From the sequence record PV654397.1: a stretch of DNA of 64,000 bases; one strand, written 5' to 3'. The notes under the pieces were generated by a model, which was given only the letters and a program-made list of their open reading frames with translations, searched no databases and had not been told where the DNA came from. The stretch's first letter is position 1. Every line of letters begins with the position of its first letter. This document shows positions 39,480 through 40,045 of this stretch, piece by piece. Origin of the DNA: Escherichia phage WPEC5. Both the position numbers and the translations under genes were made by a program.

Positions 39480-40045
39480 TTCTACGCGAATGAATCATAA
39501 CTGTCAAGGACTTTTAATATTGACGGGATTTGAGGAAGGGATTTTTCTTCCCCCCGCACGGAGGGAAATTTGACGCTGATGGTATCAGAGCTATTGCATT
39601 GAAGATTACTCATAACGAGTGCGAAAGCGGGTCATCCTGTTTCTCTCTACTTCAGTTTCATATGACGGTCTACACTTTTAAACATAGTGTATCTTCATTA
39701 AGTATCTATGCAATCAAATACTTAATGTGAGTACTCAAATTTTGGACGCAACTTTCCTGTACAAAATTCGATAACTCTCCCTTAGATAATTCGTAAGGTG
39801 TTATCCTTATATGTCTATCGAGGAACCACCAGCTATCCTAACGTGGTTCTTTATACAGCCGCATTGCCGTGAGGGGTTCAAACTATGCCCACATCTAACG
39901 GGTTTCTTTTGCTGTTCGCTACAATGAAAAGCTCATCTATCCTTTACATTTTCAAGTGAAGTAGGGGAAGATTGTCAGTACCAGTACTGTCATTGTGATT
40001 GTACATAGATCATTGTATCACCATTAATAAATTTGTCCCATAAAA
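39480..40045 (-). other. ORF-free structured region (candidate ncRNA or long leader), strand inferred
   Basis: about 560 bp without a credible ORF in a region otherwise packed with genes; locally GC-richer with several stem-loops (e.g. GAACCAC...GTGGTTC). Confidence 0.4.

Follow-up and report, generated by a model that had tools for sequence, protein, structure and literature searches.

We analysed a stretch of 64,000 nucleotides (nt) from Escherichia phage WPEC5 (PV654397.1), hereafter the window, which is part of a jumbo coliphage genome of the Asteriusvirus (RaK2-like) type. Our subject is a noncoding element in an intergenic gap of this window, which we interpret as the gene for a large pseudoknotted RNA. 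All genes between 36 and 44 kb of the window are on the minus strand. The gap (39415-40076, 662 nt) separates the gene of a sigma-70-family factor (40077-41045, minus strand; Pfam Sigma70_r2/r3, regions 2 and 3) from the next credible minus-strand open reading frame (ORF) at 39205-39414. It is the largest ORF-free gap of the window outside the region of the transfer RNA (tRNA) genes; the median intergenic gap is 56 nt and gaps of comparable size are found only in the tRNA region. The ORFs within the gap are only 38-66 amino acids (aa) long and are not conserved. In the terminator scan, an intrinsic terminator of the sigma gene was located at 40040-40072 (minus strand), with a stem at 40072-40047 followed by a T-run. 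Over the 1.1 kb around the element, identity is 99.8% with Escherichia phage Ecwhy_1 and 84-99% with further phages of the genus. An earlier note on this DNA had described 39480-40045 as an ORF-free, locally GC-richer, structured region upstream of the sigma-gene terminator. The absence of credible ORFs and the enrichment in G+C were both borne out: the G+C content is 0.389 for this interval and 0.399 for the RNA itself versus 0.348 for the window, which places the interval at the 91st percentile among windows of the same size, a real but modest enrichment. By contrast, "upstream" is correct in plus-strand coordinates only, since in the direction of transcription the region follows the sigma gene and its terminator. 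The hairpin quoted in the note, GAACCAC (39823-39829), a 13-nt spacer and GTGGTTC (39843-39849), is located where it was said to be and corresponds to helix P4 of the fold described below. Since the single-sequence folding energy is unremarkable (z = -1.4 for the minus strand and -2.3 for the plus strand), the evidence for structure rests on the comparison of homologues and not on thermodynamics.

Sensitive blastn searches showed that the centre of the gap (~39510-39966) has ~70% identity in other genera, in which the genes on either side are unalignable. The matched genomes include Pectobacterium phage CBB, Cronobacter phage GAP32, Serratia phage BF, Yersinia phage fHe-Yen9-04, Salmonella phage Munch, Xanthomonas phage XbC2 and Erwinia phages. 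In all of these, the match sits in an ORF-free gap of 610-690 nt with different neighbouring genes; by blastn, the noncoding stretch is better conserved than the genes next to it. The family was collected by scanning IMG/VR with three patterns derived from the invariant blocks, followed by nhmmer screening. It comprises at least 64 distinct full-length sequences in RaK2-like jumbo phages (Asteriusvirus, Mimasvirus, Eneladusvirus, Alcyoneusvirus and Munch-like phages), and Klebsiella phages RaK2 and K64-1 have copies as well. Each genome contains 4-5 copies, which are dispersed and point in the same direction: four in phage 121Q (at 90, 193, 247 and 327 kb, on one strand), four in CBB, five each in GAP32, Serratia phage BF and fHe-Yen9-04, and 4-5 in each of six metagenomic genomes of ~360 kb. 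The sole copy in the window is the nhmmer match at 40010-39506 (minus strand, E = 2.6e-106); neither the repeat search nor nhmmer revealed a second one there. The 64 sequences form about five clades with 1-2 members per genome. Each clade keeps its syntenic position across genera, suggesting that the paralogues are old and separately maintained and have not been mobile within the phages recently. A given paralogue is 99-100% identical between the phages of Asteriusvirus. A scan of metagenome contigs with a degenerate pattern yielded three true members (L221, L235 and L262) among the matches listed; the same kind of scan of bacterial-genome contigs yielded no true member among the matches listed, which does not establish absence from bacteria.

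The alignment of the gap consists of invariant blocks interleaved with stems whose two strands co-vary. For the 43 sequences of structural alignment A1, RNAalifold predicted 51 pairs, 32 of which have compensatory changes. Further helices were found in a scan of column pairs, two of them crossing others as pseudoknots, so that the combined model contains 13 helices and 68 pairs. Standard pairing is seen in 95.7% of the pair-by-sequence cells, versus 77.1% in shuffles (none of the 500 is as high; sequence kinship inflates this control, not the slid one), and drops to 37-43% when the partners are slid by 1-3 columns. The comparative alignment that the earlier note had proposed as a check revealed compensatory changes on both sides in 52 of the 68 pairs (496 cells), and the covariation score is 0.506, compared with 0.186 for shuffles and 0.06-0.11 for slid partners. 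This covariation shows that selection strongly maintains a complex pseudoknotted fold of the RNA. Some 95 positions do not vary between genera; many of these are unpaired, including GAUAGACAU, UAAGGGAG, CGGCAAUGCGGC, GAAACCCGU and ACCCGC.

The conserved core covers 39570-40005 and, like all parts given here, is read on the minus strand; it contains the 13 helices and runs from the predicted start to the first CAGCGUCAA (39578-39570), unit 1 of what we call the 3' cassette. The P1 domain (39921-39996) is closed by the pairing of ACAAUGA (39996-39990) with UCAUUGU (39927-39921), and all eight of its pairs show compensatory changes. It encloses a variable hairpin and a conserved GAAAA / GAUGAG segment; the P1 interior and several variable hairpins remain outside the resolved fold. 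The P2/P3 region (39855-39915) includes P2 (39915-39911 / 39859-39855), which is 100% paired with four covarying pairs, and P3 (39901-39898 / 39870-39867), and the strands of the P2/P3 internal loop, AAAAGAAAC and CAAUGCG, are invariant. Hairpin P3a carries a conserved 11-nt loop, CAUAGUUUGAA (39887-39877), and all four Watson-Crick combinations occur at the third pair of its stem; a possible pairing between this loop and the 3' tail showed no covariation. In the P4 hairpin (39823-39849), the one named in the earlier note, six of six pairs covary, with up to four pair types per position. In the segment 39777-39819, the alignment columns contain the invariant single-stranded GAUAGACAU (39819-39811) and the invariant UAAGGGAG (39784-39777), and pair counts support a small hairpin, P5 (39809-39806 / 39797-39794). 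The alignments also define an optional hairpin module, UUGUACAGGAAAGUUGCGUCCAAAAUUUG (39736-39764). In other paralogues, a module of this type is found at a second site inside P10 or is absent, the two alternative positions differing by clade. The loop of the P6 hairpin (39696-39727), UUGCAU (39713-39708), pairs with AUGCAA (39599-39594), just 3' of P8, to form pseudoknot PK-A, which is 97.8% paired with six of six pairs covarying. The 3' domain (39594-39692) consists of hairpin P7 (~39692-39670), P8 (39654-39650 / 39604-39600), P9 (39647-39643 / 39627-39623), which holds the invariant ACCCGC, P10 (39620-39618 / 39610-39608) and the second pseudoknot, PK-B. In the latter, GUCAU (39666-39662), on the strand 5' of P8, pairs with AUGAC (39635-39631) in the P9 loop. 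Pairing is 100% in P8, in P9 and in PK-B, and each of them has 3-4 covarying pairs, PK-B three.

The 3' cassette (39520-39578) comprises unit 1, hairpin P11 (UUCCCUCC GUGC GGGGGGAA, ~39565-39547) and unit 2 (CCCGUCAA, 39527-39520). Across the family the order is unit 1 (AUC..CGUCAR), an optional terminator, P11 and unit 2 (CAACAAAUCNCGUCAR), an imperfect direct repeat, AUC..CGUCAR, bracketing the cassette. P11 is formed by a variable C-rich strand and an invariant GGGGGGAUGAAA strand, with many G-U pairs, and an invariant G6 run lies near the 3' end of the RNA. Family conservation stops after unit 2. Between unit 1 and P11, a hairpin with a U-run resembling an intrinsic terminator is present in 33 of 64 copies. 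The window copy is without it: unit 1 is followed by AUUU, the conserved sequence runs 50 nt beyond unit 1, and unit 2 ends 13 nt before a promoter at 39507-39479.

A promoter for the RNA gene was predicted by the promoter scan at 40012-40039 (minus strand), starting directly after the sigma-gene terminator. It is of the extended -10 sigma-70 type, with -35 GGGACA (40039-40034), a 16-nt spacer, TG (40020-40019) and -10 TACAAT (40017-40012), and a start site at ~40006-40004 is inferred from it. In 59 of 63 family copies, TG[AG][AG]AC as -35 and TGnTATAAT are found at the same distance. TGnTATAAT occurs at 27 sites in the window versus 8.8 expected, nearly all on the minus strand and often right after copies of the sigma-type terminator; from this over-representation, strand bias and placement, it is taken to be the general host-polymerase (early) promoter type of the phage. 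In the helices supported by covariation, G-U pairs far exceed A-C pairs when read on the minus strand (47 versus 7 in one count, ~150 versus 16 in another), and on these counts the selected molecule is the minus-strand RNA. The promoter lies on the strand that shows this RNA-level selection, as in a stand-alone noncoding RNA gene. The predicted gene is ~490 nt long, from ~40005 to ~39520 on the minus strand, with both ends predicted. The promoter scan also identified a separate near-consensus sigma-70 promoter, TTGACA-17-TAGAAT (39479-39507, minus strand, 11 of 12 matches), which would mark the end of the RNA gene. It serves a downstream 69-aa ORF, from which it is separated by a 65-nt 5' untranslated region with two hairpins. 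In clades 3 and 7 (L027, L012, L014, L017, L023, L030, L035 and L037), a GC-rich hairpin with U6-7 comes directly after the -10 box, overlapping the predicted start, and may shield the RNA gene from upstream read-through.

Several GenBank records annotate small hypothetical proteins over the RNA, as would be the case for a missed protein-coding gene. Such coding sequences are found in JN882285 (GAP32_503A), PV611058, PQ390715, OR699282, PP886230, PQ330092, OR699181-3, PQ464595 and others, whereas the record of UE-S1 labels part of the element as 'repeat_region'. However, in every homologue each reading frame is broken by at least 2-5 stop codons, the longest ORFs of family members (median 63 aa) are not conserved in position, and no 3-nt periodicity of variability was found across homologues. 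A coding reading was therefore rejected, and the annotated proteins are probably mis-annotations. Chance structure in a decaying spacer is contradicted by a conservation above that of the neighbouring genes. We give these two explanations, the missed gene and the chance structure, next to no credence.

None of the 4227 covariance models of Rfam 15, the scan of which the earlier note had suggested, matched the RNA. At the gathering threshold, only five tRNAs were matched in the whole window. For 39300-40200 at E <= 10 there were only weak matches, which cover the sigma-gene terminator alone, and at eight paralogue loci nothing overlapped the RNA at E <= 1. Accordingly, no Rfam match was obtained for group I or II introns, RNase P RNA, transfer-messenger RNA (tmRNA), GOLLD, ROOL, OLE, riboswitches or small ribozymes, and ARAGORN detected neither tRNAs nor a tmRNA at 44 family loci. 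Several likenesses seen by eye were dropped. The resemblance of ACAGGACAACCCGCUU to a strand of RNase P P4 was unsupported; the hammerhead core likeness (CAGAUGAG / GAAAC / GUC) fails at critical positions, which vary or lack complementarity, and has no match among the Rfam models; the same variation, lack of complementarity and absence of an Rfam match applied to a sarcin-ricin AGUACGA motif and to likenesses to group I R/S elements. No published description of this RNA and no RNA sequencing (RNA-seq) study of a RaK2-like coliphage were found in the searchable literature. By sequence comparison, the element is a new family of large structured phage RNAs that is absent from Rfam.

Relatives of the phage RNA are also found in bacteria. 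When 5426 complete E. coli genomes were searched with the RNA by blastn, two chromosomes were matched, that of LR-29-1 (NZ_AP027515.1, ~3.479 Mb) and NZ_CM130020.1, both with a full-length copy in an integrative defence island. The LR-29-1 copy is full-length (L351 5846-6436, 395.6 bits, E = 5e-121), has the same promoter type, keeps 59 of 67 model pairs intact and nests within phage clade 8, with 80.6% identity to a clade-8 copy of Serratia phage BF. It resides in an integrase-bearing island inserted beside ffs, which carries the candidate defence system PDC-M45 (DuOB, DUF488, DUF4326). By a 257-aa protein, this island belongs to a family of small integrative islands that is found throughout Enterobacterales; among the 5426 E. 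coli genomes, ~12-48 contain the island region. The islands share a layout of recombinase, ~480-500 aa protein, conserved ORF-free gap of 0.8-1 kb, 257-aa protein, 118-aa protein, defence cargo and small resolvase, with the cargo varying between CBASS type I, MazEF, SIR2 and AAA_15. In Klebsiella islands (L352/L353 3290-3475), which carry CBASS type I and other defence cargo, a cassette without the core is located upstream of a 498-aa gene (phrog_2467). It reads TGGGAT...TGTGATATAAT, ~12 nt and AGAUCUCGUCAUU, followed by two hairpins, the first terminator-like and the second P11-like, and by CUCAACAAAUCUCGUCAG; in shorter form, it consists of the same promoter type, AGAUCUCGUCA, the two hairpins and CAACAAAUCUCGUCAG. 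Since the full RNA is present in an E. coli island and the core-less cassette in Klebsiella islands, we regard the core RNA and the 3' cassette, on comparative grounds, as separable modules that move between these phages and the defence islands of their hosts. As a separate observation, the island gap upstream of the 257-aa gene (L351 6437-7144; L352 5211-6000; L354, L356, L358, L360, L362) is 76-88% conserved across genera and contains a motif, AATTAACTAC...GAGTACTTGATAGTT, which recurs after the mini-cassette; this gap may be another noncoding element or an origin.

The islands bear on two explanations of the phage RNA. The phage RNAs might imitate or titrate an RNA-dependent component of the host island, or the island copy might be a decoy for a phage factor; this would be a special case of action in trans. 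Mimicry of this kind has a precedent in the pseudo-ToxI RNA, which imitates the antitoxin of ToxIN, and ToxI and pseudo-ToxI are likewise homologous RNA genes in phages and a bacterial defence locus. ToxI differs in being a 36-nt repeat that inhibits a linked toxin, and neither a linked toxin nor a repeat array was seen at the phage RNA. The position of the full-length copy beside PDC-M45, its nesting among phage sequences and the association of the core-less cassette with CBASS type I are in line with mimicry. We nevertheless consider it improbable: the full RNA is present in only 2 of 5426 complete E. coli genomes, while the phage family is old and universal in its group, suggesting that the phage function is independent of the island, and no homologue of an island protein is encoded beside the phage RNA copies. 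The transfer between phage and island, the direct repeat around the cassette and the coexistence of core-containing and core-less versions would also suit a selfish or mobile RNA element, either an intron remnant, as the earlier note had considered, or a self-cleaving ribozyme insertion. However, no group I, group II or small-ribozyme model was matched even at E <= 10, the RNA lies between complete genes at every examined locus and interrupts none, and the clades are syntenic across genera. The intron remnant is unsupported, and a selfish element in general appears very improbable.

The neighbourhoods of the copies bear on whether the RNA acts on adjacent genes. It could be a cis-acting leader, in which the folded RNA controls read-through from the early promoter by attenuation, by processive antitermination at the terminator/P11 or by processing. 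Most copies have co-oriented ORFs 20-180 nt past the tail, the terminator-like element lies between core and tail in about half of all copies, the Klebsiella core-less cassette (promoter, short leader, terminator, P11 and tail) is directly upstream of the island 498-aa gene, and the early region is rich in terminator-promoter cassettes. HK022 put and other processive-antitermination RNAs are similarly structured and located just after an early sigma-70 promoter, before terminators and early genes. However, put is ~70 nt long, has two stem-loops and acts strictly in cis, whereas the phage RNA is pseudoknotted, ~450-490 nt long and in some copies followed by nothing. A riboswitch or cis leader should always be upstream of a co-transcribed gene, and five copies (G17 L084, Munch L008, L342, L344 and L338) lack a co-oriented downstream ORF. 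The G17 copy is flanked by a divergent endonuclease VII gene on one side and convergent baseplate genes on the other, and the other four are similarly placed; those of G17 and Munch have their own promoter and terminator. These stand-alone copies keep the whole element including the 3' cassette, which favours a self-contained RNA gene over a leader. In addition, a separate near-consensus promoter lies between the window RNA and the next ORF, and ~450 nt with ~95 invariant positions far exceed known leader and antiterminator RNAs. The downstream genes vary by clade and lack homology from one clade to another, the family loci have no protein neighbour in common, and the 264-aa ORF downstream in the window, considered as a shared partner, is unrelated to CBB_524. 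From these alignments and neighbourhoods, the RNA is not coding and is not tied to particular neighbour genes. The leader is thus a less likely explanation, albeit the strongest of the competing ones.

The distribution of the copies also raises the possibility that the element is part of a replication origin, its early transcript forming an R-loop or a leading-strand primer as at T4 oriF/oriG or in ColE1 RNA II, and the copies representing origins. In line with this, the genomes contain 4-5 dispersed, co-oriented copies, each with a strong host-type promoter and with the invariant G6 run near the 3' end, and one copy adjoins recombination/replication genes (endonuclease VII, SbcCD-like). The phages presumably have T4-like replication genes, and a mobile island with the same cassette could be a satellite that borrows the origin of its helper phage. 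ColE1 RNA II and the T4 origin transcripts, of which T4 has several, are indeed alike in being folded transcripts of ~0.5 kb with a strong promoter and a G-run, but they lack a comparably deep conservation of sequence and tertiary structure. Moreover, selection acts on RNA pairing, including the G-U pairs of P11 and two pseudoknots, known R-loop origins do not need the many invariant single-stranded motifs, half of the copies terminate before the G-run, and the cumulative GC skew has no inflection at the locus. An origin is therefore doubtful. Both the long regulatory leader and the replication signal, which were among the options of the earlier note, fit less well than its structured noncoding RNA, as some copies stand alone with no co-oriented gene downstream.

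The structured noncoding RNA is strongly supported by the covariation, the pseudoknots, the promoter and the conservation above that of the flanking genes; beyond the earlier note, the analysis places the RNA on the minus strand, as one of 4-5 paralogues in each genome, and reveals relatives of it in bacterial defence islands. We favour a gene for a large pseudoknotted noncoding RNA, a discrete, trans-acting folded molecule made early in infection, and put the probability of this reading at roughly 55%. The RNA would be transcribed early by host RNA polymerase, and its 3' end would form just after the first CGUCAR motif by termination or processing: half of the copies have an intrinsic terminator there, and in copies like that of the window the (A/U)UUU stretch after unit 1 is a possible RNase E-type cleavage site. 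The folded RNA may then act in trans as a protein or RNA assembly scaffold, as a ribonucleoprotein core or as a catalytic RNA, since molecules with such tertiary conservation had such roles elsewhere; the conserved 3' cassette (unit 1, P11, unit 2) is one candidate target in cis or in trans. The intact copy with the same promoter, alone in an E. coli defence island, indicates a transferable unit and also speaks for a trans-acting RNA gene. Several points weigh against it. The promoter, start site and 3' end are predictions, and neither a partner protein nor a substrate or a catalytic motif was identified. The P11/unit 2 tail is conserved even downstream of the terminator, which would not be expected of a simple promoter-RNA-terminator gene. 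Most copies, that of the window included, have co-oriented genes close downstream, as a leader would. The shuffle control is inflated by kinship, as stated above, and the conserved-block patterns under-sample the diversity of the family, the true taxonomic range of which is probably wider.

Few large RNAs of bacteria or phages combine many pseudoknots with deeply conserved unpaired nucleotides, and these have historically turned out to be ribozymes, ribonucleoprotein cores or, recently, RNA-only cages. GOLLD (RF01998) and ROOL (RF03087) resemble the phage RNA in size (500-800 nt), in helices and pseudoknots, in conserved unpaired nucleotides and in phage carriage, and they assemble into RNA-only multimers (PMC12286853). 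The phage RNA differs from them in having no sequence or structure match, no adjacent tRNA at the 44 loci, 4-5 divergent paralogues each with an early promoter, and Enterobacterales jumbo phages as hosts. OLE is likewise a noncoding RNA of ~600 nt with an intricate conserved fold and works as a ribonucleoprotein. However, OLE is a chromosomal RNA of Gram-positive extremophiles with linkage to oap genes, whereas the phage RNA has neither a conserved protein neighbour nor an Rfam match. Linkage to defence islands distinguishes the phage RNA from GOLLD, ROOL and OLE alike. Similar in setting is ncRNA002 of PA5oct, a related jumbo phage: a 451-nt 'putative lncRNA' (long noncoding RNA), defined by RNA-seq and highly expressed from early infection (PMC7318152). 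It has a similar length and also occupies an ORF-free region, but it has one annotated copy, in the terminal repeat, and no homology between it (L054 952-1402) and the RNA family was detected with nhmmer --max at E <= 100. PA5oct shows that ORF-free RNAs of such size are abundantly expressed in relatives of these phages, and related jumbo phages may each carry large noncoding RNAs of their own.

Among the other features of the window, the minus strand contains ~10 copies of the 28-nt sigma-gene terminator, which is, by blastn within the window, the only within-window repeat of the region. The copies are at 16243-16270, 18038-18065, 19911-19938, 20634-20661, 24930-24957, 25608-25641, 27189-27218, 27975-28005, 31562-31593 and 40045-40072. 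Several of them run directly into TGCTATAAT, suggesting that terminator-promoter cassettes punctuate the early region. About ten tandem head-to-tail paralogous ORFs of 372-396 aa form a large multigene array at 719-12893 on the plus strand. A cluster of five tRNA genes is located at 52787-57365 (minus strand), 13-17 kb from the RNA gene. A second ORF-free gap (56707-57371, 665 nt) contains a weak tRNA match (57287-57365, 32.6 bits) and a remainder of ~580 nt, and is not a member of the phage RNA family.

For annotation, the family implies that the 'hypothetical protein' genes placed over the element in several GenBank records are probably spurious. The RNA family is so far confined to one lineage of Enterobacterales giant phages, and its maintenance as 4-5 diverged paralogues, each with an early promoter, is unusual, as is the cassette that it has in common with the mobile defence islands of the hosts. 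The comparative data provide a testable two-pseudoknot fold, and phages 121Q, PBECO4, G17 and phAPEC6 as well as their E. coli hosts are cultivable. More speculatively, and in our view unlikely, these RNAs might be a new catalytic or ribonucleoprotein-forming class of giant-phage RNAs for which their own cassette (CGUCAR, hairpin, CGUCAR) serves as substrate or docking site, the islands carrying the bare cassette, or occasionally the whole RNA, as a sensor or decoy for it. If so, the system would represent an RNA-level module of phage-host conflict without a described precedent.

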